This document shows, one piece after another, positions 9,680 through 64,000 of a stretch of 64,000 bases of DNA. The stretch's first letter is position 1; the number at the start of each line of letters is the position of its first letter. Source of the stretch: Dipteris shenzhenensis (taxonomy: Eukaryota); NCBI GenBank assembly GCA_047967505.1, contig CM106538.1. One strand, given 5' to 3'. The position numbers were made by a program, and so were the translations under genes. Under the pieces are notes generated by a model, which was not told where the DNA came from, did no database searches, and saw only the letters and a list, made by a program, of their open reading frames with translations.

Positions 9680-11670
9680 TATTAAGGAGACTAATCTTTT
9701 GCTAACTCCACAGTTGGTCTAGATCAAGATCAAAGGGGATTATATCATCCTTAGAGGAGAGAACTCTTAATTAGTCAATCGAAGCCATGCCCAAAAATTC
9801 CCAAATAGTTCCTACTTGAAGTCAGTCCCTACACTCACATGCAATTTCACATCATCATATTTCCTAAAACCCAACCACCTTCAGTTTAGTGAGAAAACTT
9901 CAAAATTTTCAAAGGCATTGGTTGATTGTTCAGTGGGTAGATTGTACATCGTTTGATTTTTGCACTCACATGCCATCATTATAAAGCCTATCAGCAGGTA
10001 TTTTCTTACTTTGTGCACACTATTTGAGCCTTGTAAAGCGTCTTGAATATTACCGGCATCATTTGCCACACAAGACTTTTATCAAATTGGATATATATTA
10101 CAATTATATCTTCACTGATAATTCAGATTGCACTTGATATAGACAATGTTTTGCAGTTGATTCAAACAATGTTTTTCACAAGCACTTTGAGTACTATTTA
10201 TTGCATCATGTCTACCACTAGCAACCTCGATTTGGATGCATCTGCTAATTTAGGCGATTCTAATTATGGCACATGGAAATACCAAATGGAGACCATTATT
10301 GTATGTCAAGACAAATGGGACTATCTCAATGGGTCTACACCTCGACCATCCAATGAACCAGCACTTGCTCCTGCCATTGCCATTTGATTAAAAAAATGTA
10401 CAAGATGTCATGCTTGGATTGCTCAACATGGTGAAGCATCCAAAGAAGCATGGGATATGTTTGCAGCTCTTTACGAGTCTAAGAACACATCCACAATCCT
10501 CACACAGAGAAACTAAATCAACCAGAAATTCTACAATAACAATGAAATTGGTCATGCTTACATACTTGGAATCAAGGATTACAACAATTAACATATAGCA
10601 GTAGGAGAGACTATGAATTCCATGAAAATGGTTCACTAGGAGAGGGATACGAGAATCTAGTCTAGGGTATTTCCATTCAATGGTAAATTTCAACAGTGGA
10701 AGAGCTGCAATCAGTGCTACTTGGGGAAGAACTCAGGACTCAATCCATTCAAGCACGAAAAAGTCATTCCAATGATCAAGCATTCACAGGTTCAGATAGA
10801 GGTAATTTAGGCAGAGGTAGATCATCTCAAAGGAGTGGTCAGTAGCATCAAAGTCATCAGTAGTAGTATCAGCACCCGCATCCGCAACACCATCAACATC
10901 AGTTTCCAAGAGGAATTCATTCCAACAGAGGAGGATTTCAAGGACGAGGGAATGCATCCACCAATGTGTCAAACATTTAGTGAAACTACTATCATAAGTT
11001 TGGACACAACAAAAGAGATTGTTGCAAGAAGCAGTACAAGCAAGGAAGTCAATCTAGTAGCAATCAAGGAAATATTCCATGGAAGAGTAAATCATCATAG
11101 TGTACATTCAAGTCACTGTCATTATGCTAATGAACCACAGAATATGTTTCTTGCAAGTGAGGATATGTAGAAGACTGGTACGATGTATCTCAACATTGAT
11201 TTCAATTCAAAAGGAGAATGCAATTATCAAGTTGATTAAGTAGATCAAGATCCTTGGTACATCGATAGCAGCACGTCATCTCATATGACAAAGCATCAGG
11301 AATGGTTCACAGAAATGAAACCATTAGAAGGATAGAAGAACATTATCTACATTGGATATAACACACCAAATCTAGTTAAGGGAAAGGCATTGTCCTTATG
11401 AACGATTTGACTCGTACAAAAGGATTGGTAAAAGATGTACTCTATGTTTCAAAGCTCATCAAGGACCTCTTGTCAATCTAGAGAGTCATCTTTGATGGAG
11501 ATGAATGCACCATCAAAGACGAATCCAAAGGATATCAGCTAGTAGGAAAAGCATTCAAGGAAGGACGCTTATTCATAATGCTAGCTTCAATAGTAGATTT
11601 GCATGCTTTGTTAGCTCAGCAGCAACTGATGCCACTTTCCATAGAGATATGGACATGTCAATTTCAAAAG
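9680..11670 (+). mobile_element. Old truncated copia family B fragment (leader, gag, protease)
   Basis: MSTTSNLDLDASANLGDSNYGTWKY matches MSTSNLNLEASAKLDNSNYGTWKY of the element at 54290-61546. DPWYIDS protease motif near 11250 and RYGHVNFK near 11645. Many stops and frameshifts. Confidence 0.88.
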
Positions 11671-14521
11671 CTTGATGAAGTTCAGAAATCAAAATATGGC
11701 AATTGGAATTCCTAAGCTTTAGATTCTTGGAAAAGTAAATTTTGAAAATCTCATAACTTTCACATCCAATGTCCAAATATAGTCATTTAGCCACTCAAAT
11801 CGAATGAAAAATACCTTTTGAGAACATCTACAAGGCATAAGTTATAAATTATATTAATTAGAAGATTGAATTCTACATTGAACTTTTAAGAATATAAAAA
11901 TAGTCATAATTTATATTTAGTCTTTGTAGATTTTTCATTTTTTGGTGAAATAATCACTAATTCTCATTGATGAAGCCTCTGATGAGTGATAAGAAAACTC
12001 TATGGAGAGGAGATATGGAAATCTGCACTCATTGACTAGCTGCATGCAACAATCTAGTAGTGTCAACAACATATTATCTCACTCTAGACTAGATTTGCAT
12101 GCAGCTCGAGTGGCAACCCCTCCACAACAAGAACCCGGTCTCATCCACGAGAGGCTACTGGAAGCATCATCCTATGCCTCCACCCTTTGCTTCACCTCAC
12201 GCATAGTCCATGACACATTCCACTACTTTTTGCACACCATCTCCACCGCAGTCCTCTCCCACAACATCCTTTTTTACAACACCCTCACATAGCATGACAT
12301 CGAAGAGATTTTTTGCCACACCACCACAAATGCCCATCCAATCATTGCCATGGCATACTTTCATGAGTATATGGTCCTAGATGTCAATATGGACATCCTT
12401 ACACTCTTTTACCACCCCATTGTATATAATTTTATGATGTGGACTAGAGTGTTACAGGATTCCATAGACTTCACCATGGCTACACCTCCTCTTGAACCAC
12501 CTAAGTCACCAGCCTTAGAAGACCAACCTTGCACTCTGGATATCCTCTACAGAAGTCTAGAATGGATGCAAGTGTATGGTCGGAGTGATGCTAAATATAT
12601 TTTCCATGGCCTGTTCTGGGCTGGTAGTGAAAGGTATCCTCCTACAAGCATTATAGTGCTATACAATAATATACTCCAAGCCCTACAGAATATGATTCAA
12701 ACTGGCATAGGTCAAATTGATGATTCCCATGTGGCATAGCCAATAGATGTACAGCCCGAAAACATGGATTCGGCTTTGAACCTTTTTAACTTCACCCCAA
12801 AACCACGCTGCAATCACAGCCCAACAAAGCTCTTAGCATAGGCCCCAACTCCACTATCATGGGCATACACACAAGCATAGGCCCCACCTCACATCCCTCC
12901 ACATCACAGCATGGCACAACGGACACATAATAGTAGCCTCTCAAATAGGAGGGACCACAAGACATGCCATAACACTCACTAATATAAAATCCTCAAACCC
13001 ATGGTCTTCTCTGACATGGAAGGGCCCTCCTATAAAGAAGGCCAAGAGGAGGTTGAACAATACCTCACGAAGAAGAATACCAATAGCTGTAAGACACCAT
13101 TCCCAACCACAACACATGATATAATGCCATAACATCATTCCGCACGGTCGAGCATGTGGCATATGTTAACCGATGGAAAGCAAGCTGTAGAGCTTCCACC
13201 TCACATGCAAAGATATCACAAAGGTGCAAGATCTCACGAATTGATCCAACACACCTTTTGTAAGTGACAGCATGAAAATTATAGGCACACATGGGGTGAA
13301 TACAATAGACTAGACTACAACCAAGTCCCCCACACAGACGCTGATGTAGGCCTACGGTGACAATGGCGGATCCCATTTTTGAAGCACATAGCATTTTGGA
13401 GAACATACTAATGTGCTGGAATAGAGCAAAGGATCGACCCCACTTACATGCCACTATGCCACCGAAGGAGCTGGCCAAATTTTGAATGGCTGCAGGTAGC
13501 AAATCCCAATGTAGCCTACAACTTCCCGAGATTTGAATTTCCAAAAGTTGTCTCTTCCTTAGCTCTAGTAGCTCATATGGAGGAGTTTAATAGTACCTTT
13601 GCCTCAGTCCTTGATCCTGCAGTCATAGCTACAATGCATTTCTTCCAACTCTTGATCCTTTTGCTATGGGACCTACCAACACTCGCACTGCCGGCCAAAG
13701 AGCATCATCAACAGCTCCGTATAGAAATAGTTTTCAATTTTAATGAGGGTCCCTTATTCCCTCAAGTCATGTGCCTTTATGTACATGTCTATAACCTTCA
13801 TGGTCACCACATTCAGGCTTTCCAAGATAGTGCGAGACACACTTTTGGAAGCCGCTCCATACATTTTGCCGCATCTCCCATAGAACCTTTGATTGGTACT
13901 ACATCATGAACAATGCCCTCGAGATCAACATCATGCACCGGAGACAATCCACGGATGGATTGTGAGCAAGAATGGGGACATGTTAACTACTACCATGGTT
14001 AACAGTTCATGTACTGTGATAACCAAGATGAGATGTAGGAGAGAGCATGAGGATTAGCATATGACATTCACCTTGGAGCCAAATGGGCCCAAGTCATCAT
14101 TAAATGAGAATGAGAGAGGTACATGAGAATACAAGGGCTAGCCCTCCCTTCAAAAGGTTGAATGTATGTAAGGCCAAACGTTTGACTTTGGTCTTCATTA
14201 TGTACTTGCAAGTTTTGGAATAGAAGCTCTCTCTTTCCTTTCATTCTCTTGCATTGAGTCTTATTTCTAAGTTGTCATGTGATTGCCACTCTCGCCCTTG
14301 CTTTCATCCCTTTCTTCCTTTCCCTCTCCCCTTCCCCCTCTCTCTGTGCCCCTCATGGAATCACTCGCACACAATATGGTAGATGCTTGGGTGACACAAG
14401 CATGAGGCTCGCATATACAAAGCTCCCAAAAGGAGTTGTTTGGTAGTAGAGGCTTCGATGGCATTCTTCCAAGATCCCCACGACACGTGAGTCACTACCC
14501 AAACTACATAGGGCCTCATGT

Positions 14522-14779: not shown

Positions 14780-16330
14780 TATTTGCATGTACCTATGTGG
14801 ACTTAAAAGAGGTTCATTCATGACATGGTCAACCAAATTCCTTTGAAACCAATTGCAAAACCTATTTGGTAACTACATTCTGTTGGGATATCTCAAGGTG
14901 TATGCCTCAGGCACACCTTATGTTTCTATGTGTGAGTGCTAGAGGCACAGTTAGGTGCCCACAAGCACAGTTAGGTGGTGGAGAGCCACATAGGATGATT
15001 GAGAGAATCTAGGAGTAGATTGAGGAGATGATTGTGGAGCTCTGAGGTCATCAGTGATGTCAGTGAGCATGTATGAGGTGCCTACTTAAGGACCTCACTC
15101 TTCTTCATTCTACAAGCAAGTAATGCAAGTATTCTGAGTTTGTGTCCACTCTTTGCTTTCCTTTCAGCTTTCCAACATGGTATCAGAGCCATTTTATCCC
15201 CCTTGAGCCCATTTCTGCCACATCATCATCTTCTTCTTCTCCATTTTCCTCTTTCTTCCCAAAATCTTTGAGAGCTTGGTTCTCCACCTACAAACGACCA
15301 TTGCCCAAACCCTCTGAGCTGGAAACTCCTCTAGTATGGGCGAACTTCCACCTGCAAGCAATTGAAGAAAAAACGTCTGTGGTGGCTGCCATTCTCCAAA
15401 CAACAAATTTCTTCTGTTGCTCAATACTCCCTGCCTGCTCCGCCATTGCCTGCTGAGCCCTCTTAGAAGTAGATGGGCGACCTCAAGACGAAGATTTTGA
15501 GCTATTTTTCAGGTCATTTGGTTCAGTAACGAGGGAGAAATCGTCAAAACTCAGTTTCAGCCTGTAGCAACTCTTCCGAGCAAAAGTGCACACCATTTCG
15601 TCCAACCTCTGTGCTGGACCTTCTCTGGTATATGAGCTTTCTTTTGCTTCAGAAAGCCCTCTTTTCCTTGCTTTGAAGAGTGAGCTACAAACTTTTTTTT
15701 TTTTTTTTTTTTGAGGTCATCAGTGATGTCAGTGAGCATGTATGAGGTGCCTACTTAAGGACCTCACTCTTCTTCATTCTACAAGCAAGTAATGCAAGTA
15801 TTCTGAGTTTGTGTCCACTCTTTGCTTTCCTTTCAGCTTTCCAACACATTCAAGGTTGGTTGCAGTTGACTAGCTCCAAAAAGTATGCTAAGCAAAATTA
15901 GTGAAGTTCTTAGAAACAAGTCTTATTTTTCTTTTTTGTGTGTCAAAATAATATTTCCATTTTAGTCCCAAAAGATGAATCCATCACCATGCAAGTGTGT
16001 TGATTACTAGGAGTTCAATAAGATGTTGGTTCTAGACTTGTATCCTCTTTCTTTCATCCTTCAAATTTTCTATCAAATATTAGGGAAGGAGCTCAATAGT
16101 TTCATGGATTTTGTCTGTAGGCTATAATCAAATTGCAATGTACTCAGAGCGTAAATTGAAGACTACATTTGTCTCTCCATATGGATTTTTTTGGAGTAAT
16201 GTGATGACATTCAATATGTGAAATGCACTTGGAACTCACCAAAGGTTTATGAATGACTCCTTTGAAATCCACTATTAAAAGGCTCTAATATTTTCATGGA
16301 TCAGTTAGCTCCAGGGATGACTATTTTGAC
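14780..16330 (+). mobile_element. Highly degenerate Ty3/gypsy RT remnant, interrupted by the 14881-15846 element
   Basis: Broken translations resemble IPLKP.AKP, CVDY.EFNK, DLYPL, SFMD..GYNQIAM and KTTFVSPYG. Confidence 0.6.
14881..15846 (+). mobile_element. Internally deleted LTR retrotransposon (5' LTR 14881-15177, PBS, partial 3' LTR 15712-15846)
   Basis: TG...CA ends, 5-bp TSD CATTC (14876-14880 and 15847-15851), and tRNA-iMet PBS TGGTATCAGAGCC at 15178-15190. The last 135 bp of the LTR are repeated identically. Confidence 0.92.
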
Positions 16331-40190: not shown

Positions 40191-40546
40191 TGTTGAGATA
40201 TCGAGCTCCACTCGCGATATGCCAGGGTGACTGTTGTGCATTTATGTCACCGACTTGTTTAGCTGGAGATGCGGTTGGTACACCACCCACGAATAATAGC
40301 TGGATGACAGCTATCCTTATCTACTCTAGTTTGTGGCTCAGTTAATATGCCACCTTAGTTAGTTGAGTTTGGTTTGAGACCCACATATAGGGTTCTTCTA
40401 TTTTCTTTGTACTAGAGTTCTTTTGGCTTTCACAACTAAGAAGAGAAAAAACTGTTTTCAGCCTCCACCTTTGTGTGTATTCCCCCAATTGTTCATGTGA
40501 GAAAGCTGCAAGTGAGACTCCTTCGCTCTCTCCTACTATCTTCACA
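40191..40546 (+). repeat. 5' LTR, copia family A
   Basis: TG...CA ends, followed by the PBS. Confidence 0.95.
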
Positions 40547-41045
40547 TGGTATCAGAGCCTTGTTTGTGGTAAGGAGCTCAAGAAAGCATGGTAAGAGGAC
40601 CAGTGTTGCTTTCCTATTTCGAGTTTGGGAGCAAATCTCTGCAGGTAGCACAGCCAGAAGTGCAAGAGTGCATTGTCTCAGATTGAGACGCCCTTCGCGG
40701 TGTGGCGAGAGCGCAGTATATGCTGCAAGGTCATTTCTGATTCGAGTCATTTCGGGGCCTGTTTTGGAGACGGAAGTTCTCCGCAGGCACTCAGAAAAAG
40801 GCCCTGTTTTTGCTGTGCGACCACTGTTCTGCGGGTCGGTGAAAAGTTGCCGCAGAAATTGCATCATATGCCTTTGTGCAGAGATATTGGGAGTTGCAGA
40901 TTCATGCTTGTTGCCTGTTGATGCAAAATCGTCACTAGGAAGTGACTGTGTGGTGAAATACCACTTTCGTCAGTTTTGCAGTTCTGCAAGTGTGAGGCAA
41001 AAGCTGTGTTTTTTGCAGTGACAGAATATTTTGCAGTGTTCTGTA

Positions 41046-44000
41046 ATGGCATCTGATTCTCTTTCACAGATTGTCACTGAAAAGCTTGACAAGAACAACT
41101 TCCAGGCATGGAAGTTTAGAATGACGAATTTCTCGATGGGAAAAGGCTATTGGGAGTTCATTACAGGAAATGAAGAAGAACCTGTTCTTCCTAATGTTCC
41201 CAGTCAACAGGAAATGCAGGCATTCAAAGGATGGCATGAGAGAGCCAGGAAAGTTATGTACTCGCTGTCTATCAGTATTTCGGACTCCATGATTGTGCAT
41301 ATTCAGGATGCAAGTACGCCAAAGGAGGCATGGGATACTTTGGCAAAAATGTACAAATACGCAAGCTAGGAAAATGCAGCTCACAATGTGCAGAGAGAAA
41401 ACATGAGCACTACCACATGAAGCAAGAGCTGCACAATGTGCAGAGAGAAAACATGAGCACTACCACATGAAGGTGAAGAAAATTGCAGATGAACTTGCTT
41501 CCATTGGGTCGCCAGTGGATGATGACGATTTGGTTTCTGTGACCTTGAATGGTCTAGGAAAGGATTATGCACAATTCCGGACATCCATTGCTGTCCGTGA
41601 AAAATTTCCAGATTTTGAGGAGTTGATTGCTCTTCTAATTTCTGAAGAGCAGAGAAATGGGGGTGCATCTTCTTCAGCAGGAACTTCAAAAGAAACTGTC
41701 TCTATGCTGGCAGAGGTAGAGGCAGAGGTAGAGGAGGCCGATCTGCAGGCCGTGGTAGAAATCAGAATATGCAGCAAACGCAAGAAAACCAGTCCTATGC
41801 AGGAGGACGTGGTAACTCTAGAGGCAGGGGGAGCCAAAGAGGCCATGGTGGATGGCAGAGAGGCCAAAATGCAAACACCAATGTTGAATGCTACTATTGT
41901 GGCAAAATGGGTCATATGGCTAAGGACTGCTATAAAAAGCATAATGACATTATGACTGGAAAATTGCAGCAAGGCAATTATGCATCTTCTAGTAGGCAGG
42001 GTGATGACAGAGATGAGCATCTATTTATGGTGCAGCATATGACCAATTGTGTGACAAGTGCAGAAGAACGAAATGATGTGTGGTATGTTGACTCAGGTGC
42101 GTCAAACCACATGACAGGTCATGCAGAATGGATGCAAGATGCAAGGAAAATGGAAAAACCAGGATTTGTGGAGACTGGTGATGATACTGTACATCCTATT
42201 GTGCAGATTGGCAAAATTCCTTTGTCTATGCAGGATGGGAAAAAGAAATACTTGTCTGATGTATTTCATGTCCCGAACATCACCAAGAACCTGGTTTCTG
42301 TTGGTCAGATGGTTGAGCAGGGCTTGCAGGTCAGATTTAATCCTCATGGATGCTTTGTTGAGGATATGAAAAATAATGGTCGCTTGATAGCAAAAGGAAA
42401 GAAGAAGGGCAGGATGTTTACGTTGGATGCGGACATGCCTGAATTGAGTGCAGCAATGTTTGCACATGGGACCGGTGTAGTTGCAGATATTGATATCTGG
42501 CACAAACGCATTTGTCATGTTAATATACAGCGACTTAAATCAATGCAAGCCCAAAATATTGTTGCAGGATTGCCTAAATTCAAGGTTGCAGAAATGCACA
42601 AGGTTTGTGAAGCCTGTCAATTTGGGAAACAGGCAAGGAAACCTTTTCCTAGGCATGTTCAAGAGAGTAAAAAGCCATTGGAATTAATCCACTCTAATGT
42701 GTGGACTACTAAAGCTGCATCTATTGGTGGCTGTCACTATTTTGTCACATTTATTGATGACTTCAGCAGAAAACTTTGGGTGTATTTTTTGAAAAAGAAA
42801 AGTGAAGTGTTTGGGCACTTCAAAGCTTTCAAAGCTATGGTTGAAAAAGAAACAGGCCTGCAAATAAAATGCCTAAGGTCAGATGGAGGGGGAGAGTACC
42901 TCTCAAATGAGTTTGCAAGGTTCTTGCAGGAGCATGGTATAAAGCAGCAATATTCATGCAGTCATACCCCACAGCAAAATGGAATTGCAGAAAGGAAAAA
43001 CAGGCATATTGGAGAGGTATCACGGGCTATGCTAAATGAAAAAGATCTACCAGATTAGTATTGGGCTGAAGCAGTTGCTACAGCAGTTTATATAATGAAC
43101 AGGACTCCCACTGCAGCAATACATGGCATGACGCCAGAGGAGATGTATACTGGTAGGAAACCAGATATTTCTCATTTGAAAATTTTTGGTTGCATTGCCT
43201 ATGTCCATGTGCCAGATGAGTTGAGGTCCAAGTTGGATCCAAAAGCTGAGAAGTGCATCTTTATTGGTTATTCTCTACAGCAGAAAGGGTATAGATGCTA
43301 TAACCCTTCTACACGTAAGTTCACAGTGAGCAGAGATGTTGTTTTTGATGAGATGAGTAGCTGGTATAAACCAGTGAATGTGATGATTGATGTAGATGCA
43401 CAAAATGGTAATGCTGCACAGATTTCACAGTGAGCAGAGATGTTGTTTTTGATGAGATGAGTAGCTGGTATAAACCAGTGAATGTGATGATTGATGTAGA
43501 TGCACAAAATGGTAATGCAGCAATCACTAAATATTAGTGGACCTAGAGTGTTCTCTAGCAGTGGTTCACATACTTCGCCATGGACAGGCAGATTGAGATC
43601 AGGAGAATCTCCTCAAAGCAATGCAGAGAGTGGTATGCAGGTATCACGAAAAGGAAAAGAGAAGGTAGATCAGCCCATGTTTGATGTGAATGCAGGTCAC
43701 TCTTATGTGGATGGTGAATCCAGTGGCTCAGAACAGAGCATTGATGATGAGTTGGGTATTCCTTCTGTTGTTACACCTGGAGTAAGGAAGACCAGGGATG
43801 TTTTGAGAGCACCTGGAAGTGAGCGTATTTTGCGCAGGTCTACCAGGGTTAGGTATCCTGTGGATAGGCTGAAATATGATGGATTTACAGCCATTCACTA
43901 TGCCTATATGGTCAAAGTGATACAGGAACCAGAACCCACTTCTTTTGAGCAAGCCATGGGAAATGAAAAATGGGAGAAAGCCATGGATGAAGAAATGGAT

Positions 44001-45509
44001 GCCTTGGATGCTAATGCTACATGGGAATTGGTGCCTTTGCCTAAAGACAAGAATGCAATTGGCTGTAAGTGGGTTTATAAGATCAAGCACAATGCAGATG
44101 GTTCTGTGAATAGATACAAGGAAAGATTAGTTGTCAAGGGGTATGCACAGACATATGGCATTGATTATGAAGAAACTTTCAGTCCGGTTGCAAGGATGGC
44201 AACCATAAGAGCAGCCATTGCTATGGCTGCATCAAAGGGATGGTCTTTACATCAGATGGATGTAAAGAATGCCTTCTTGCATGGTGATTTGCAAGAAGAG
44301 GTCTTTATGGAGCAGCCAGCAGGTTGTGTTCATGCTATTCATCCTGAGTTTGTTTGCAGGTTGAAGAAAGCCTTGTATGGCTTGAAGCAAGCACCTAGAG
44401 CATGGTCTGACAAGATAGGACAGTATCTTGTCACTATTGGCTTTCAGATTTCCAAGGCAGATTTCTCACTCTATGTGAGAAAAACAGAGAAAGGGATTAT
44501 GCTGCTGGTCATTTATGTTGATGATTTGATCATCACAGGTGATAGTGATGAAGATATCCTTCATGTGAAAATGCTATTGAGACAGAAGTTTGAGATGAAG
44601 GATTTGGGAGAGCTGCGTTATTTCTTGGGCATTGAGGTGATTAGATCACCAAGTGGGATACAGCTCTTGCAGAGGCAGTATGGATTGGACATGCTGTCCA
44701 AATATGGGATGACAGGCTGTAAGGCTATTTCAATTCCTTTGGAGCAGAATGTGAAGCTGAGTGCAGATGCAGGTGAGCTTCTGGAAGACCCTACTATGTA
44801 CAGACGCATAGTAGGAAGTTTGATTTACATGACTATTACCAGGCCAGATTTGAGCTATGCTGTTGGGTGGGTAAGTCAGTTTATGCAGGCTCCAAGGAAA
44901 CCGCATTTGGATGCGGCTAGACGCATACTCAGGTATGTGAAGTCCACATTGCAGTATGGACTATTTTATGAGGCGCAGATACAGTTGCATGGATACACTG
45001 ATGCTGATTGGGCTGGTAGTATTTCTGATAGGCGATCTACCAGTGGATATGTGTTCTCTTTTGGGAGTGCTGCAGTCACTTGGAGCAGCAAGAAACAGCC
45101 TACAATTGCCTTGTCGAGCACAGAGGCTGAGTACAGAGGTGCAGCAATGGCTGCATGTGAGGTAGCTTGGTTGCATAAGCTACTCTATGATATGCATCAG
45201 TCTACAGATGGGCCGGTTGTCATTTATTGTGACAACATGAGTAGTATACATTTGGCAAAGAACCCAGCCTTTCATGCCAGAACAAAGCACATTGAGGTGC
45301 ATTATCACTATTTGCGGGAGAAGGTCTTACTAGGTCTTATTGATCTAGTTTATGTCAGCACAGAGGATCAGGTAGCTGACATATTCACGAAAGCATTGGG
45401 CGCAGAGAAGCTGCGCAAGTTCAGAGACCTGCTTGGTGTGCAGGAATTGAGATGTAGCTCGAGGGGGAGTGTTGAGATATCGAGCTCCACTCGCGATATG
45501 CCAGGGTGA
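41046..45509 (+). pseudogene. copia gag-pol (gag, CCHC, protease, integrase, RT, RNase H) with frameshifts and stops
   Basis: MASDSLSQIVTEKLDKNNF, CYYCGKMGHMAKDC, WYVDSGASNHM, IDDFSR..RSDGGGEY, YVDD and DADWAG. Broken by internal duplications and a TAG at 43056-43058. Confidence 0.93.
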
Positions 45510-45817
45510 CTGTTGTGCATTTATGTCACCGAGCTGGAGATGCGGTTGGTACACCACCCACGAATAATAGCTGGATGACAGCTATCCTTATCTACTCTAG
45601 TTTGTGGCTCAGTTAATATGCCACCTTAGTTAGTTGAGTTTGGTTTGAGACTCGCATATAGGGTTCTTCTATTTTCTTTGTACTAGAGTTCTTTTGGCTT
45701 TCACAACTAAGAAGAGAAAAAACTGTTTTCAGCCTCCACCTTTGTGTGTATTCCCCCAATTGTTCATGTGAGAAAGCCGCAAGTGAGACTCCTTCCCTCT
45801 CTCCCACTATCTTCACA
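45470..45817 (+). repeat. 3' LTR, copia family A
   Basis: Differs from the 5' LTR by an 8-bp indel and about 5 substitutions (counted by eye). Confidence 0.95.
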
Positions 45818-53594: not shown

Positions 53595-54289
53595 GGTTCA
53601 TGCAGGTGAGAAGAGGAAGTGTCAACAAGCTGATCTCACAAAGTCTCAGAGGAAGGTGTTGAAAAACGAGAATGTACACTTCTTAATGAATGTCGATCAG
53701 GACATCATTGAGAGCTTTCCAAAATGGTGAAAGTGGTGTACAAAATTTGGTGAGGACAATGGCAGAGCATGGAGGGAGGACCTTGTGTGATCGATTTTCA
53801 TATGTTTTCATAGTAGAGTATATAGACCAGTATTTGTACTATTTGTACCACTTACCGATGGAGGGCCGACGATGCCTCGGTCAAATAGATCGAGACATAA
53901 ACTCATGTGACATAAAGTGGGAGGGTCCTGTTGTAGATGCCAAGGTCACGTACATCAAGAATGCGTGGCAAGGTTACAAAGGCAAAGGAGTTGCCTCGAC
54001 CTCCCTTCCATCAATGCACCCACATCCCCAAGCACAACCGCAACCACAAGCATCAATGCACCCATGCCCCCAGTCAGATGCTGCATTACATCCACCACAA
54101 CCACAAGCACCAATGCACACATGTCCCAATCATATGTCGCATTCCACCCAACGTAGCGGCAAGCACCACTGCAGCCACACCACACGTATGCACCAGTGCA
54201 TCCACCACAACATGTCGAACCCTATATCCCTTTTTTCCAAGATATTTTATACCTAGAAGTTCCTCCTCCTTTTTCACATCTCCCACCAC
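53595..54289 (+). pseudogene. Unknown degenerate coding region, probably the 5' part of the kinase-like gene split by the copia
   Basis: Follows a pyrimidine-rich TAG acceptor at about 53577. A Pro/His/Gln-rich tract continues on the far side of the copia at 61547. Confidence 0.4.
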
Positions 54290-54546
54290 TGACAAAATAT
54301 GAAGAGGGGAGAGGAGAAGAGTGGAGATGAGGAGAGAGGGCACAGCTAGAGAGCACACCACAAATGACTAACTGTACACTAGAATTAGTTGAAAAAATAG
54401 AATATATACAAACCCTTTTAGGGTTAGGGTTAGGGGATCTAACCCTTTCCTTTATAGCACTCTATAAGGTTAGTGCTATGCACATATGATCACGTGATGG
54501 TGCTATGCACACATGATCACATGATGTTGAGCGTGAACTCTCAACA
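54290..54546 (-). repeat. 3' LTR, copia family B
   Basis: TG...CA ends, adjacent to the PPT. Confidence 0.95.
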
Positions 54547-54634
54547 CCTTCCCTCAAGATCAACATCATGAAGTAGGCCTTCCCTCAAGATGATGATTCT
54601 GGGGAATCGAAGAAGGACTGAGCATTACATTCCA

Positions 54635-57600
54635 TCACACCCCTTTAATGGGAATGTCCTTCCTCTGCATCAAACCAAGAGCTAGTCGGTGTTTCTCGAA
54701 TAGCTCTTTACCGAGTGGTTTGGTAAAGATGTCTGCAACATTTTCTTTGCTATCACAATGCTGCAGTGTGATGTCACCAAGTAACACTCTTTCTCTGATG
54801 AAGTGCTCTCTGACATCAATGTGCTTTGTTCTGGAGTGATACACTGGATTTTTGGCCAATGCTTGAGCCGATTGATTATCACAGTATATTGTTGTTGGCT
54901 TTGACTCATCAAAGTAATCTGTTTCTGACAATAGTCTTCTGAGCCATATAGCCTCACATGCACCTGTAGTGAGTGCTCTATATTCTGCTTCAGTCGAAGA
55001 CAAGAAACAGTTGGCTGTTTGTTTGACAACCATGATATAGCACCTTGACCAAGGAAAAATGCATATCCCTGTGTCGATCTCCTAGTCTCATGATCTCCAG
55101 CATAGTCACTATCACAGTATCCATGCAACCGTGGATGACTTCCTCTGTATTCTATCCCAAATTGTCTTGTACCTCTGATGTATCTCAAGACTCTTTTGGC
55201 TGCATTCCAGTGAGACTGTTTTGGATTTGCCATAAACTGTGCTAGTGAGCTTACTGCATAACAAATATCTGGCCGTGTGATTGTCAGATATATAAGAGAT
55301 CCAATGAGTTGCCTGTAGTATCTGTCATTGACTGTAGGCTTTTTTGAATCTTTAGTAAGTTTCAAACTCTGTTCCATGGGAGTGGCTGCAATCTTGCAAT
55401 CTGCCATATGAAACTTCTTTAGGAGACTGTCAACATATTTGAGCTGACTCATGAATGTGCTATCTGAATCTCTCCAGAACTCAATTCCAAGACAATAGTG
55501 CATAAGTCCAAGATCTTTCATGTCGAACTCTGCAGATAAGTCTTGTTTTAGCTTTCTGATGAAGCTATCCTTGCTTCCTGTCACAATCAGATCATCTACG
55601 TACAAAAGTGCAATAGTAATATCTTCCCCTTGAACTTTGTAGTAGAGAGTATGATCTGCATTGGACTTCATGTATCCCAGATCAGCAAAATACTTATCAA
55701 TTCTGCTGTACCAACTTTTGGGTGCTTGCTTTAAGCCATAGAGACTTTTCTTGAGATGGCAAACCTTGTTCTCCTGTCCTGGTTCAACATAACCGGCTGG
55801 TTGTTGCATGTAGACTTCCTCGTCTAGATAACCATTGAGAAATGCATTCTTGACATCGAGCTGATACACATTCCATTTACTGAGTGTCGCTAGTGATATC
55901 AAGAACCGTATGGAATCCATCTTTGCTACTGGAGCATAAGTCTCATCATAATCTTGACCATATTGTTGTGCAAATCCTTTTGCAACTAATCTGGCTTTGT
56001 ATCTTTGAATACTGCCATCTGGATTGTACTTCACTTTGTATACCCATTTGTTGGCTATGGCCTTCTTTCCTGATGGAAGGTCGCATAATTCCCAAGTGTT
56101 GTTTTTATACAAAGCATCCATTTCTTCATTCATTGCAGTTTGCCATTCTGGCTTATCTACTGCGTCTTCGAAGTACACTGGCTCTTCTGTAGCCATGATG
56201 GTAGTCATAAGAGCATAGTTGGTGGTTTCCACCTGAATTGCTTTGCCTTTTTGAGCATATGTCAATCTGGCTGGTGGTCTGCTTTCCCTAGTAGACCGTC
56301 TGAGCTGCTGTGACGCTGATTGGGGTGTTGCTGGCAATTCTTGCTCTTCTTCATCAACCTGTTCTGTAGATGACTGTGAAGTCGATGCTTCTATCTCCTG
56401 TGTAGGTGAGGTTTTCCATGCTGATTCCTCATCAAAGATTACATCTCTGGAGATAATGACTTTGCGGTTGATGGGATCATACAATTTGTATGCTTTACTT
56501 TCTTCACTGTAGCCAACCATGATGCATTTGCGTGACTTCGCATCCAATTTCCTGCGATGATCATCATGTATGTGGGCATATGCTATGCAACCAAATATGC
56601 GGAGATGCCCAATGCGTGGCTTGTGTCCAGTGAATGCTTCATAAGGAGTCATACCTTGTATCGGTTCGGTAGGAAGCCGATTAAGCAAGTAGTTAGCTGT
56701 AGCTATTGCTTCTGCCCAATACTGATTCGGAAGATGCTTTTCACTAAGCATTGCTCTAGCACTGTCTGCTAAAGTCCCATTCTTCCTTTCAGCTATTGCA
56801 TTTTGCTGAGGAGTATCTGCACATGTGAATTGTCTTCGAATGCCGTGATTTTTGCAAAAGTTCATGAAGGCTGAAGACATGTATTCACCTCCTCTGTCTG
56901 ATCTCATGACCTTGATCTTTCTGCCTGTTTGGTTTTCTACCATGGCTTTGAATTCTTGAAATCTGGCAAACACTTCAGATTTCTCTTTCAGAAAGTAAAC
57001 CCAACAATATCTGCTGTAGTCGTCGATGAAGGTCAAGTAATAAAGTGAACCATTGATGCTGCGGGTCTGGGCATAACCCCATACATCTGTATGAATCAAA
57101 TCAAGAATACCTCGTGCACGAGAGGTACTTCTGACAAAGTTGGTTCGCTTTTGTTTGCCGAAGCAGCATGCTTCACAAACCTTTCCAAGAAACTGTAGCT
57201 TCGGAATCCCAATTGCCATATTTTGATTCCTTAGATCTAACAAGTACTTGAAGTTGACATGACCATATCTCTTGTGCCATTTTGCAGATAGTGGCATCTA
57301 TTGCATTTGAGCTGACATGGCATGCTTATCTGGTACTGTAGCTAGCATCCTGTATAAGCATCCTTCCTTGACACCTTTTGCTACTAGCTGACCTCTTTTG
57401 GATTTGTCTCTGATAGTGCATTCATCACCGTCGAAGATGACTTTGTAGTTGTGTTCCGTCATTTGACCTACTGACAAAAGGTTCTTGCTGAGCTTCGGAA
57501 CATAGAGCACATCTTTGACTAATCCTTTTGTACCAGTGAAATTGTTCATAGGGATAACACCTGTCCCTTGAACCGGATTCGGTGTATTGTCTGCTGTATA

Positions 57601-58878
57601 GATGACATTCTTTTGACCTTCTAATGGCTTCATTTCTGTGAACCATTCCTGATGATTTGTCATATGAGATGATGCACCGCTGTCGATGTACCAAGGATCC
57701 TGTTCCACTTGGTCGACTTGATAGCTGAAATCCTCTTTGGGATTGAAATCAGTGTCTTGGTGCATTGTATCAGTCTGATGCAATTCCTCACTTGCAAGAA
57801 ACATATTGCCATGTTCATTTGCAAAATGACTGTGACTAGAATGTCCACCACGATGATTTCCTCTTCCTCGGGAATTCCCTCTATTACTGTTGGATTGACC
57901 GCCTTGGTCATACTGCTTCTTGCGGCAATCTCTTTCATAGTGTCCAAACTTGTGACAATAGTTGCATTGAATGTTTGACACATTGGTGGATGCATTCCCT
58001 CGTCCTTGGAATCTTCCTCTGTTGGAATGATTTCCTCTTTGCTGATTTTGATGTTGCTGAGGATGCTGCTGATGCTGATGCTGATTCTGACTTTGATTTT
58101 GACCACTTTTCTGATATGATCTACCTCTGTTTCTGCCTTTGCCTCTGCTTTTGTCTGAAGCGGTGAATGCTTGATCATTAGAATGACCTTTACGTGCTTG
58201 AATGGCCTGAGTCCTGAGTTCTTCACCAAGTAGAACTGACTGAAGTTCTTCCAGTGTTGGAATTTGCCGTTGGATGGCAATACTCTGGACTAGATTCTCA
58301 TATCCTTCTCCTAGTCCATTCAGGATTACTTGAACCATTTCTGCGGGATTCATAGTTTCTCCTACTGCTGCAAGTTGATTGTTGTAGTCTTTGATGCGGA
58401 GTACATAAGCATGACCGGTTTCACTGCTGTTGCGGAAACTCTGGTTGATCTGGTTTCTCAAGGTGAGAATCCTGGATGTGTTCTTGGACTCGTAGAGAGC
58501 TGCGAACATATCCCATGCTTCTTTTGATGTCTTGACTGTGTTGAGCTGTCCTAGCATGACATCTTGCACGTTCTGCTTGATCAGGTGATAGGCATACTTA
58601 TCTTTCTTATCCCATTCTGCTTGAGCTCGGGCAATGGCAGGATCTGCTACTGGTGCGGAAACTGTTTGTGTAGATGTAGATCCCGTTGCTGGTGCTGTGA
58701 CATCAGATGGAGTAGAGCTACTGGTGGCTGGATCGGCCAATGGTCTAGGTATGGATCCATCGACATACTCCCATTTGTCCTGAAGCACAAGAATGGTCTC
58801 CATTCGGTATTTCCATGTACCGTAATTGGAGTTGTCTAACTTAGCAGATGCCTCCAGATTGAGGTTGCTAGTCGACAT
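54635..58878 (-). pseudogene. copia gag-pol with one in-frame TAG (57298-57300) and one frameshift in RNase H (near 55010)
   Basis: MSTSNLNL at 58878, CNYCHKFGHYERDC, WYIDSGASSHM, HTDVWG..IDDYSR..RSDRGGEY, LDVKNAFL, YVDD, CDSDYAG and RTKHIDVR. Confidence 0.93.
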
Positions 58879-59684
58879 GGTGCAAACAATGTACTCAAAA
58901 GTGTCCTGAAAAAACTCTGTATGAATCAACTGCAAATATACTGAAGATGCCAAGTGAAATCTCTGTACCGTCGGTGAAGATAGAACTGCAGTAAATAAGA
59001 TCTGACCTGTGTTACAAGGCTTGTGGCAATGATGCCGGGAATAGCCAAGAGGCTTTACAAGGCTGAAAATGATGTGCACGATGCCGTGAGATAGCCAAAT
59101 AGGCTTTACAATGGTGGCATGTGTGTGTGAAATCAAGTGCTATCTGCCCACTGAATCAATCTGCAATGCCTCTGAACTCTGAAGTCTGCTCACTGAACTG
59201 ATGAACGTAAGGTTTCAGGTAATGTAATGATGTGAAATCGGATGTGAGCGTATGGACTGACTCCGAGTAGGTACTAGTCGGGAATTTTGGGCATGGCTTA
59301 GATTGGCAACTTGGGGAATTCAAAGCGTCCCCTCTATGGCGATCTAGTCTACTCTGATCTAGATCTAAACCAACCGTCGATCGATGAAAGAACAGCAAAT
59401 AATTCCTTTTCCTTTGTTCTTTTTTAAGTGCTGGGTCAGATGCGTCGATGTAGAGGCAAATGTGCGTGAAGGAAGTGGTTTTGTCGGCGAGGCTCAAATG
59501 TGAGTGTAACTTGCGCCGAAATGTGCGCGTGATGTAACGAGCGCGTAGAGCACAAAAAATCGAGCGACTTTCCTTTTTGGAGCACCCTCAAATTCTTCCT
59601 GGATCAAGAGATATGACTTGATCTAGGTGGAGGGGCAAAAGGAGTGCAAATGGTGCTCAATGATGATGTGTCACTGTGAGTCAC

Positions 59685-60130
59685 ATGCAGTGATGATGTG
59701 GCACTGTGCTTAGCAAGAGGTGTGCCAGTGAAGCTCTGTGCTGAGGTGGCAGTGCTGAGGTGTCACTAATGACGTGGCACTGATGACGTGGCAATGATGA
59801 CGTGGCACAGATGACATGGCACAAGTGACATGGCAAATGACATGGCCTGATGACGTGTCACTGATGACGTGGTAGGTGACGTGGCTGATGACGTGTCACT
59901 GATGATGTGGCAGGTGACGTGGCTGATGACGTGTCACTGATGACGTGGCAGGTGACGTGGCTGATGACGTGTCACTGATGACGTGGCAGGTGATGTGGCA
60001 GTCGGTGCTGACGTGGCAGTCGTGCTGACGTGGCAGATAAGACAGGTACACGTGGCACTTCCGGGTGCCTGATGACGTGGCAATTGGAGATAAGGGTTGC
60101 CACGTGGCAAAACGCTATCTGCCACGTGTC
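59685..60130. repeat. Tandem array of TGACGTG(G/T)C motifs in the copia leader
   Basis: About 16 exact TGACGTG, 3 CACGTG, and CpG-decayed TGACAT/TGATGT variants at 12-14 bp spacing. Confidence 0.92.
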
Positions 60131-60558
60131 AAAACGCGAGGCACCGGAATCTACCCAAGATTCTGACGGAATCTTGGAGATTCCGTCGTCTTCTCCGTTG
60201 ATGGAGGCGGCCGTCGAGCCCGTTGGCTGTGCTGTGGGCTATCGTAGGAGCCGTCCGCTTCGTTGAAGAAGACTCGTTGATGAGCTTGTTGATGGGAGCC
60301 TTCGCGGCTGTGTGCAGATGGAGGGGCGCTTCGTTGTTGCGTTGCAAGCCTGTGGTTGAAGGCTATGGCGCCACAGAACGTGGTTGGCTAGGCCTATCGG
60401 AGCTGGCGATTCAGCAGAATGCGCAGGGGCTGGTGCCAAAAGTGGAGCCAAGCTAGAAGCCGTTGGAGCTAAGCATCGTAGTCATTGCAGGTGAGACGGC
60501 TGAGGCGTCGCTGAAGGAGGCAAACTTTCGAAGCTGGTCGTTTGGAGGCGCGTAGGAG

Positions 60559-60849
60559 ATGTTGGATGCCGATAACATCTTCCTGCGCAACACCGACGAG
60601 CTGTTTCAATGCGGCCAATTCTACGCAGTATTCATCAATCCTTGCATCTTCCACACAGGCTTGTTTGTTCTCGAGCCGTCTCAAGCAACTTTCAAGAGCT
60701 TGCTTGATGGATTACAATCCAAGGAGAATCCCGATGGCGCGGATCAAGGCTACTTGATGGCCCAATTCGATGACTTGCTTGGAAGGCCTCTGTTCGTGCC
60801 GCCTCCCAACAATTCCAAAGTTAATGGATTCTATCGTCTGCCATTGGGC
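60559..60849 (+). pseudogene. PGSIP7/8: Captured fragment of a plant GT8 glycosyltransferase (PGSIP7/PGSIP8-type)
   Basis: MLDADNIFLRNTDELFQCGQFYAVFINPCIFHTGLFVLEPS...NPDGADQGYL...DLL..PLF.PP....RLPLG, containing the DxD motif and the GT8 DQG motif. It is antisense to, and inside, the copia. Confidence 0.88.
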
Positions 60850-61289
60850 TGCGCTGCTTCGAAGGAGGCTATGGCTTTGCTGAAGAAGGACGTCGCCATC
60901 CCGTTGGCGTAGAAGCCTTGTAGCGCAACACTTTCTTTGCTGTGTCGTAGCTCTTTGGAGACAAGTTTTCCCTCAAACTAGAATGTCAATTCTCTCCCAC
61001 AAGGACAAAGAGATAACAATTCTCAAGAGTGAAACTCTCACAATCAATGAAGAATCTCTCTCTCTCTCTCAACTCAAGAAACACTCAAAGGAAGGAACTA
61101 AAATCTCTCAAGAATGAACTCAAAGAAAGAAGAATGGACGGAAATTTCTTCTCAATGACGGAAATTTCTCTCAACGGAAGTGAAGGGAAAGATCTCACAA
61201 TCACTCAAGAGAACTCTCAATCTCACAATCTCTCTCACACTCTCAAGAAACTCAATGTCTCAACGGAAGACAAGGGAGCTCTGATACCA

Positions 61290-61546
61290 TGACAAAATAT
61301 GAAGAGGGGAGAGGAGAAGAGTGGAGATGAGGAGAGAGGGCACAGCTAGAGAGCACACCACAAATGACTAACTGTACACTAGAATTAGTTGAAAAAATAG
61401 AATATATACAAACCCTTTTAGGGTTAGGGTTAGGGGATCTAACCCTTTCCTTTATAGCACTCTATAAGGTTAGTGCTATGCACATATGATCACGTGATGG
61501 TGCTATGCACACATGATCACATGATGTTGAGCGTGAACTCTCAACA
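61290..61546 (-). repeat. 5' LTR, copia family B
   Basis: Identical by eye to 54290-54546 and adjacent to the PBS. Confidence 0.95.
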
Positions 61547-61804
61547 CACATGCACGATCACATTTCACCACATCTTTTGTGCCTCCATTTGTGCCTCCTA
61601 CTGCATGCGCAAACCAATTTTCATCTCTCGTATTTTTTCCTGCACCACAAATGCACAATCTATCTGCACAAGTAAATATATTTCCATCTCCATTCTCGCC
61701 TGCACAAGCACCACACACATCACATGGCTTGCATGATCATGTAGAAGTGCCAAGACCCATGCGGCCCATACTACTTCAGCGACGAGACATCCGATTCATG
61801 CCTA

Positions 61805-62400
61805 GTGCTGCTGTGCTGTCCCGTTGATGCATTGAAGGCCAGCACATTGGAAGTAGCCACATGCTTGGGCAATGTCATACATCCAGTCATCATCTGGGCA
61901 ATAGGTCTAGTCCATGATGATAACCCAATGATACTATTTCCGTTTTGGAATGGAAATCATTTGGAAAGATGGCTAACCTACCTCAGACATGACGAAAAGC
62001 GACCATCTCCGGTGTTTCACAGAGATGATGCAGAAATGCCTGCTAGAGCTCCATGGGTCCCTCAGCATGTATTTGATATTTTAAGTGCACTAGTTCTCAC
62101 TATTCATTACATGCACTAACACAATGTCCCGCATAATGATTTGCATGCGCAAAACATTATGCTACACTTCTTGGAGTCATTTGAGGAGGTGTATTTGGGC
62201 ATTTGTGATTGGGGAATGATGACCCCATGCAGCACTAAAAAGCACTATCCCGCATTACTCAGTGACAGCCCCAACACTATGCGAAGCTCCATTGCTAGGT
62301 TTCATCATGTTGCTCCAGAGTGCCTTTGCACCAATCCCCCACCTTTCGATGTTGCATAGGATGTGTATGCCATGTCTCATCACATCTTGAAAATCTTGGA
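61805..62400 (+). pseudogene. Protein kinase-like pseudogene (catalytic lobe)
   Basis: FPFWNG hinge, HNDLHAQN catalytic loop (62132), CDWG (62207), VAPE (62309) and DVYA. In-frame stops at 62117 and 62357. Confidence 0.78.
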
Positions 62401-62925: not shown

Positions 62926-63519
62926 ATATTATTTAATTGTTTAATATTGTTTAAATATTTAATATTATTTGTGGTTACAAATTGATTTTATCTTGTTGTC
63001 ATTTTTTAGGCTAAGTATGAGCATGGAGGGAGATAACTTAGAGAACATTCTCTCACAAGATCCTCCCTAACCAGAGCAACCTCCAGTCCAAGAGGGCCCA
63101 CAAGGTGTTTTTGTGCCTCAAGAGGCTGATTTAGCAGACCAACTAAATCACGCTGATGCTCAGGCTATCTTACAAGTGCAAAGAGAGATGCTGGGCAAAG
63201 AGGGACTAGGTATTTTTGCTGCTGGTCCAGTGGATGACGATACCATGCAAGGCGACAACACATATGCTTTGAAAAACACGTTCAAGCATGCAATATATTA
63301 ATTATCATTCAATCACGCTCTTTTAAAATAATTCACATTCTATTGAAAGAATATTAAATATTCATTCAAAAGAAAGTGTAAGAGTGAGTCAACTCTTCTA
63401 ATAACTTTTAAACTTTCAATTCCTACACTTTAAAACTATGTATTCTTTCACATTCTATTGAAAGAATATTACATATTCATTCAAAGAAAGTGTGAGAATA
63501 CAAACACAATAAAATCATA

Positions 63520-64000
63520 TTTCTCACATGAGGTCTAGGGAGCTCAACGAGAAGATCCTAAAACTCTCACATATAAAAATTCCCACAAAAGATCTAAGGA
63601 ACTCAACAAGGAGATCTTAGAACTTCCACAAACTAATTTAATAATTTCATAGACATGAAAACAAGCCCATTTCTCACAAGAAATCTAAGGAACTCAATAA
63701 GGAGATCCTAAACTCCCACATACAAAAATCTATTCACATGAAATCTAAGAAACTCAACAAGGAGATCCTATAACTCCCACAAAAAAATTTCATAGACACA
63801 AAAACAAGCCCATTTATCATAAGAGATCTAAGGAGCTCACCAAAGAGATCCTAGAACTCCCATGTACAAAATCTATTCACATGAGATCTAAGAAACTCAA
63901 TAAGGAGATCTTAGAACTCCCACAAACAAATTTCATAGACACAAAAACAAGCCCCTTTATCACAAGAGATCTAAGGAACTCACCAAAGAGATCCTAGACC
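63520..64000. repeat. Tandem repeat with ~143-bp higher-order unit (about 60 + 83 bp), running off the window
   Basis: Core ATCTAAGGAACTCAACAAGGAGATC at 63533, 63592, 63683, 63743, 63826, 63886 and 63969. Confidence 0.9.

Follow-up and report, generated by a model that had tools for sequence, protein, structure and literature searches.

A copia retrotransposon on the minus strand of a fern contig (Dipteris shenzhenensis, CM106538.1) carries in its 5' leader, on the opposite strand, an open run of codons that reads like part of a plant glycosyltransferase. This raises the question of what the stretch is, where it came from and how it entered the element. We addressed the question within the 64,000 nt of DNA analysed here (called the window below; all positions refer to it). 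It is likely that an internal, intron-free 293-nt piece of a PGSIP8-like mRNA, lying reversed in the copia leader, and at least one further piece of a host mRNA entered as reverse-transcribed spliced mRNAs, and that these pieces are non-coding passengers. The features on which the argument draws are collected in Table 1.

The element itself is a structurally almost intact, very young member of the Ty1/copia group. Its two LTRs are identical at 258 of 258 bases in a direct-repeat comparison within the window, and read on the minus strand both of them start with TG and end with CA. Assignment to Ty1/copia follows from this TG...CA LTR pair, from the primer binding site (PBS) by the 5' LTR and the polypurine tract by the 3' LTR, and from domains that run from gag through the protease side and the integrase to RVT_2. 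The PBS motif TGGTATCAGAGC we take to be the usual copia primer site, for initiator tRNA-Met. Between the LTRs there is a single gag-pol frame of 1484 codons on the minus strand, with one TAG as its sole break, and Pfam places the domains in the copia order (gag, Pol beta-barrel, GAG-pre-integrase, integrase, SH3-like, RVT_2). A clean 5-bp target site duplication was not found around the element: 54285-54289 read ACCAC and 61547-61551 read CACAT, with only CAC in common. As the target duplication is absent around identical LTRs, recombination between sister copies is possible.

Table 1. Positions of the copia element, its leader and the host-derived sequence within it (strand is given as a point where none applies)
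Feature	Position	Strand	Details
PGSIP8-like GT8 piece	60558..60850	+	293 nt; 97 codons 60559-60849; antisense to element; no intron at 60675/60676
Shared 8-nt stretch GCGCGTAG	60549..60556	+	left junction; also in parent transcript just upstream of matched part (X1, X2 contigs)
Second host-derived piece	60396..60452	+	60396-60433 matches abundant host transcript
5' LTR	61290..61547	-	TG...CA; last shared base 61547 may belong to flank
3' LTR	54290..54547	-	direct-repeat partner of 61290-61547
Primer binding site (PBS)	61278..61289	-	exact motif TGGTATCAGAGC; adjoins 5' LTR directly
Polypurine tract	54547..54555	-	GAGGGAAGG on minus strand; adjoins 3' LTR; read from letters
gag and beta-barrel (protease-side) polyprotein part	57301..58878	-	Pfam Retrotran_gag_2 1.4e-25, Pol_BBD 3.3e-26
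In-frame TAG	57298..57300	-	inside GAG-pre-integrase region
Integrase, SH3-like domain, RVT_2 reverse transcriptase and C-terminal part	54682..57297	-	Pfam rve 1.7e-14, SH3_retrovirus 1.9e-34, RVT_2 2e-80
5' leader	58879..61277	-	2399 nt; gag ATG at 58878
Tandem array in leader	59742..60036	.	units of 14, 17 and 38 nt; rich in TGACGTGGC; Tandem Repeats Finder
GC-rich block holding host-derived pieces	60140..60930	.	55-60% GC; composition
Remaining segments of GC-rich block	60140-60395, 60453-60557, 60851-60930	.	no family, structure or RNA match

Some further features of the element and of its surroundings deserve mention. The in-frame TAG, present despite the identical LTRs, may reflect either a very recent mutation, mobilisation in trans or stop readthrough. 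Each LTR carries a telomere-like (TTAGGG)3 inside a short palindrome (61418-61435 and 54418-54435). The leader contains 13 upstream ATGs on the element's sense strand. In its tandem array, words like TGACGTGGC built around ACGT recur about 19 times, and we take them to resemble a G-box or ABRE-type bZIP site; contigs from one of the public runs described below (X2) skip parts of this array, so its copy number differs among family members.

Elsewhere in the window, another copia-type element occupies 40261-45817 (286-nt LTRs that are 98% identical, PBS at 40547); it contains a 104-nt internal duplication (43320-43522), and a partial copy, 96% identical to it, lies at 1-2646. The segment 15043-15846 is bounded by a pair of 135-nt direct repeats that are 100% identical, with 669 nt separating them, and the same PBS motif starts at 15178 right after the first repeat; by this layout the segment, of about 800 nt, looks like a terminal-repeat retrotransposon in miniature (TRIM). 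Beside the 5' LTR of the studied element, plus-strand ORFs interrupted by stops (61745-62359) give a weak Pkinase match (E 6e-4, below the cutoff), and from these features they are probably a kinase-like pseudogene or a TE-borne piece. Finally, an array of repeats of about 140 nt (e.g. 63725-63855 versus 63868-63998, 94% identical) at 63500-64000 runs off the end of the window.

The glycosyltransferase-like stretch belongs to a stop-to-stop ORF at 60556-60912 on the plus strand, which has 118 codons with Met as the second. Residues 2-98 of its translation align without gaps to PGSIP8-like proteins of Ceratopteris and Adiantum, with 83 identities out of 97 (86%) and a pairwise E of 7e-62. A search against 5.8 billion proteins gave a best E of 4e-49, with 401 of 554 candidates at E<=0.001, and most of the matches among those listed are named PGSIP8 or PGSIP7. 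The DxD (LDADN) and DQG (GADQGY) motifs are both present and fall in columns that are conserved among the homologues; PDB glycogenins also match the piece, at E 1.4e-8, and are aligned over both motifs. Pfam assigned the 118 residues (a short query) to 0 families at E up to 10, leaving the GT8 model PF01501 unmatched, so the GT8 assignment is that of the homologues, whose precomputed families are mostly PF28460 (PF01501 or PF11051 in few). Likeness to PGSIP8 ends after RLPLG, in the pairwise alignment as well as in tblastn. The piece lies between the PBS and the gag ATG of a minus-strand element, and is thus antisense to the element. A preliminary description, made from the letters, had read the locus in this way: a GT8 fragment of PGSIP7/8 type, with the DxD and DQG core within 97 open codons, placed between PBS and gag on the strand opposite a young copia and losing its similarity abruptly after RLPLG. 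The searches and the structure of the element agree with it on each of these points.

How much of a PGSIP8 protein is present can be stated closely. The piece spans residues 95-191 only of a 436-aa homologue (P0001), and tblastn of seven PGSIP8-like proteins against the whole window found no PGSIP8 part beyond this stretch. Judged from its sequence, the stretch is a fragment and not a gene, a whole catalytic domain and the C-terminal membrane part being absent.

Evidence on the form in which the fragment was captured comes from the introns of other plants. In ORF-proteins predicted on genomic contigs of many plants, the matches to the piece stop right after the motif HTGLFVL[Q/E]. Among 120 such short ORF-proteins, the residue after the motif is V in 90, P in 16 and another residue in 12 (the motif is missing in two); V at this place is expected when a GT donor site is read through. 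Full-length proteins with the motif have P next in 117 out of 117 cases. Two proteins mark the position from other sides: P0137 translates through a short intron at that spot, and P0136, whose residues before PS are unrelated, matches from PS through YQMDASYF and no further. The closest ORF of the V type (P0144, 95% over 39 aa) has fern-like residues upstream. The window, by comparison, reads VLEPSQ straight across this conserved intron position (60675/60676).

The ends of the piece can be placed with the same proteins. In 83 of the 90 V-type ORFs, the ORF already contains NKLYAW before it reaches MLDADN, which therefore does not open an exon, and RLPLG sits eight codons before the next exon end (P0136). 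A piece that reads uninterrupted over a position where plants conserve an intron, and has both ends inside exons, points to a spliced mRNA as its source. It fits a cDNA origin and does not fit capture at the DNA level, the intron positions being those of other plants' ORF-proteins and not of the parent locus in this genome. The element can be counted among the transducing elements, as it holds between its LTRs a host piece from spliced RNA (with other plants' ORF-proteins as the intron reference). The comparison of intron positions thus bears out the earlier proposal that cellular RNA had been captured; template switching, the route then proposed, would be one way of achieving it.

A search for the parent gene ended at a near-identical transcript contig. 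Four small public runs (X1-X4; their kinds are guessed labels only, 'DNA?' or 'RNA?') contain 13-15% of the sampled words of 60000-61290, and we compared their contigs over 59600-61560. X1, X2 and X4 each yielded one contig (of 2629, 2501 and 2591 nt, respectively) that aligns to 60558-60850 without gaps, with three, four and four differences in 293 nt. All three contigs extend more than 250 letters beyond the match on both sides, and we read these extensions as the PGSIP8 sequence found on either side of the piece in full-length proteins; the contigs are therefore parent transcripts, or at least represent the spliced form. From X3 came several variants that are shorter and differ from the piece at 2 to 23 positions. 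At 60623 and 60720, the piece departs from the parent contigs of every one of the four runs: the change at 60623 puts Tyr in place of a nearly invariant Cys, and that at 60720 is silent. The guessed run labels bear on the argument from introns: if X1 were truly DNA, the parent gene of that organism would itself be without the intron, and the case for an mRNA origin would be weaker. Contigs of the four runs do not cover 60260-60391, 60458-60523 and 60854-60919 and bridge no junction, which carries no weight either way.

The sequence around the piece tells us something about how it was joined. The 8-nt stretch GCGCGTAG at the left junction would be either microhomology or part of 10 more captured bases with a small indel. 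At the right junction, nothing is common to the window and the parent. A partial likeness to PGSIP8 that seemed visible by eye to the left of 60558 was rejected as a further piece, as it comes down to these 8 nt.

A second piece of host origin was found in the GC-rich sequence to the left. Positions 60396-60433 are matched by contigs of depth 193-219 in three of the four runs (X2, X3 and X4), with unlike sequence on both sides, and 60434-60452 seems, from its letters, to pick up that frame again about 12 codons further on (VP.VEP). The contig letters around the match translate to an open frame containing VLKIG, LARYA and ICQ, which we take to be class I fructose-bisphosphate aldolase, from which the second piece would then derive. 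With the short ORF of the window at this place as the query, PDB, Pfam and representative-protein searches found nothing to support the aldolase label. Both recognised host pieces lie on the plus strand, antisense to the element. As the second one lies in the GC-rich flank, the flank is at least partly a mosaic. The preliminary description had suggested that the GC-rich flanks (60140-60550) might be further captured pieces, and this turned out right for 60396-60433, where a host transcript matches, whereas the rest gave nothing.

Searches of the block were otherwise negative. Outside the recognised pieces, it has no match in Pfam, PDB, Rfam or a scan of 1.84 billion representative proteins. 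Over 60090-61290, searches for captured pieces gave 0 matches in PDB and 0 in Rfam, and no Pfam match to the 7 plus 19 ORFs compared reached its threshold. The best of them, Tmemb_14 in an 84-aa ORF (E 0.007; 17.5 bits against a cutoff of 24.8), was rejected, as the same ORF has 0 matches among the 1.84 billion representatives. A tblastn search of the flanks at E 50 for more of PGSIP8 returned chance-level matches only, and the flank segments show no likeness to one another or to the remaining leader (no pair with z>4). We also considered the block 60140-60930 as a nested element and rejected it: no flanking inverted repeats were found and no poly(A) was seen by eye.

Since the pieces are antisense and intron-free, read-through into a neighbouring gene is impossible, and what is left is reverse transcription of spliced mRNA followed by reversed joining. 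In retroviral transduction, read-through and template switching place spliced cellular sequence between the LTRs, with short homologies at the junctions. The locus shares with it the spliced, intron-free cellular sequence between LTRs and the short homology at a junction. Classic retroviral transduction gives the sense orientation, whereas the piece here is antisense, and this difference counts against an origin within the retrotransposition cycle insofar as that is thought of as classic read-through transduction. In the mechanism we propose, spliced host mRNAs would be reverse-transcribed and the copies would enter the GC-rich leader block in reverse orientation. Along the likely route, the element's reverse transcriptase would have jumped to a co-packaged mRNA or to the cDNA of that mRNA; alternatively, cDNA scraps may have been joined at short homologies. 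The reversed orientation would need one of three events: a jump onto packaged mRNA during plus-strand synthesis, the use of host cDNA as a template during minus-strand synthesis, or end joining of cDNA scraps. The data do not separate these three, and we favour capture within the retrotransposition cycle, which we regard as probable.

The next candidate is a repair event private to this copy, in which a break in the leader after integration was filled with scraps of host cDNA by microhomology-mediated end joining, so that the block never transposed. This is unlikely in our view, and several observations are nevertheless what it would lead one to expect: the 8 nt shared at the left junction, the composition of the block as a mosaic of short unrelated pieces, and a sibling copy that lacks the block. 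The sibling is a contig of X1 that differs from the studied element at one of 276 bases in the LTR and PBS and at 13 of 150 in the gag-side leader, and it has 1686 unlike letters in place of 59750-61270 of the window; members of the family thus differ in the interior of their leader, and not all of them carry the block. Also in keeping with a private repair, no other copy with the junctions was seen in the four runs or in metagenome scans, where exact patterns of 29 nt (LTR/PBS) and 30 nt (right junction) each returned 0 matches; the power of these searches is low. A related copia in the window (leader, gag and pol start at 9707-11736 on the plus strand, 75-77% identical to the studied element) is cut off upstream at 9707, so its leader is not comparable.

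Against a repair after integration stands the timing. The LTRs are identical at all 258 positions and the piece has two derived differences, one of which removes a conserved Cys. Had the LTRs and the piece begun to diverge at the same time, our own arithmetic would predict about 3.5 LTR differences, and with none seen the Poisson P is about 0.03, which is weak, as it comes from two sites only. The two differences from all parent contigs, together with the identical LTRs, suggest that the capture is older than this insertion. The differences at 60623 and 60720 could in principle, on the other hand, sit in the parent allele of this genome itself, which counts against such an order of events.

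The captured piece may have consequences for the parent gene. Over 293 nt, the complementarity between any full-length transcript of the element and the parent mRNA would be 99%, and siRNAs directed against the element would match the parent gene. We see an antisense or siRNA effect on the parent as a possible side effect and not as an established function. The preliminary description had proposed siRNA cross-talk or a shielding from silencing; the former is a general model from the literature (10.1101/777037), and the latter finds no backing in the present data. A broader reading makes the family leader a collecting site, where pieces of abundant host mRNAs would be pasted repeatedly in antisense and then spread with the element, with selection acting on the cross-talk. 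We regard this as improbable; were it true, the family's transcripts would be natural antisense RNAs and sources of siRNAs against a cell-wall or sphingolipid-type glycosyltransferase and a glycolytic enzyme.

It is also quite improbable that the family keeps antisense host pieces as a selected module that would trigger or blunt silencing, either by knocking down PGSIP8 and the aldolase or by protecting the element. Both recognised pieces are antisense, the identity to the parent is 99% and, by our own arithmetic, most 24-mers match it perfectly; in addition, the available part of one maize study documents siRNA cross-talk between transposable elements and donor genes and gives a general conflict model (10.1101/777037). 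The same part of that study reports that 204 maize Sireviruses (3%) carry exon fragments, that 15% of those hold two or more, and that there is no orientation bias (10.1101/777037), so two pieces in one orientation are weak evidence. The sibling copy without the block speaks against a module kept by the family as well.

Very improbable is a new chimeric gene, in which the plus-strand ORF would be expressed as a truncated GT8-like protein. The frame is indeed open for 118 codons and has a Met at its second codon, but an open frame is expected of a piece 99% identical to its parent, and this one covers only about 97 of 436-502 residues, has lost the nearly invariant Cys, is unrecognised by Pfam and has no similar protein that includes its tail among 121 short proteins found. 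An assembly artefact that joined a gene read to a repeat is hardly credible either, as a misjoin would more likely bring genomic sequence with the intron, and what is seen is an internal 293-nt segment of cDNA type with two private differences, set between two non-genic segments in an element that is otherwise colinear.

The locus can be compared with other systems that carry pieces of host genes. Captures at the DNA level, as by Pack-MULEs and Helitrons, normally retain introns; unlike them, the piece here is intron-free, and no terminal inverted repeats surround the block. What it has in common with Pack-MULEs and Helitrons, as these are treated in the available parts of two sources, is the mosaic of short pieces from several host genes and the possible siRNA cross-talk (PMC13317346, 10.1101/777037). 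Closer to it are other LTR elements. Template switching in plant LTR elements has been described, and the maize LTR retroelement Bs1 carries three transduced host gene segments, according to the text available from one source (PMC13317346). Like Bs1, the element studied here is an LTR retroelement whose LTRs enclose pieces of at least two cellular genes; unlike in Bs1, where the pieces form a transcribed and translated hybrid ORF (PMC13317346, in the same text), they are antisense here, sit in a leader that precedes a nearly intact gag-pol and give no hint of being a gene. A maize survey found gene fragments in 425 LTR elements; 36 of these are copia and, in its available part, none has two genes (PMC2774510). 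Exon fragments inside full-length elements are thus shared with maize Sireviruses and other LTR captures, as far as the available text of these reports goes (10.1101/777037, PMC2774510), and the fern host and the PGSIP8-like donor set the present case apart from those in maize.

Literature searches returned no paper pairing 'PGSIP8' with 'retrotransposon', and no fern-specific study of gene capture by LTR retrotransposons among the matches listed. Capture of gene fragments by plant LTR retrotransposons is already well known, and the locus is a clean, ordinary example of it. New here are the match to the parent transcript, the spliced source, the second piece and the sibling with a different leader interior. 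To judge from the 3-4 differences from the parent in 293 nt and the identical LTRs, it is an unusually fresh case when set beside the maize captures.

For annotation, the 118-codon ORF should not be named a GT8 gene. The locus is useful as an example and leaves existing knowledge unchanged. In the available parts of the sources, gene captures and the possible siRNA conflict are documented mainly in grasses (PMC13317346, 10.1101/777037, PMC2774510), and to these the locus adds a very fresh case from a fern. In captures as fresh as this one, it may still be possible to read by which route the piece entered (a jump of the reverse transcriptase versus end joining) and how the donor gene first responded epigenetically.
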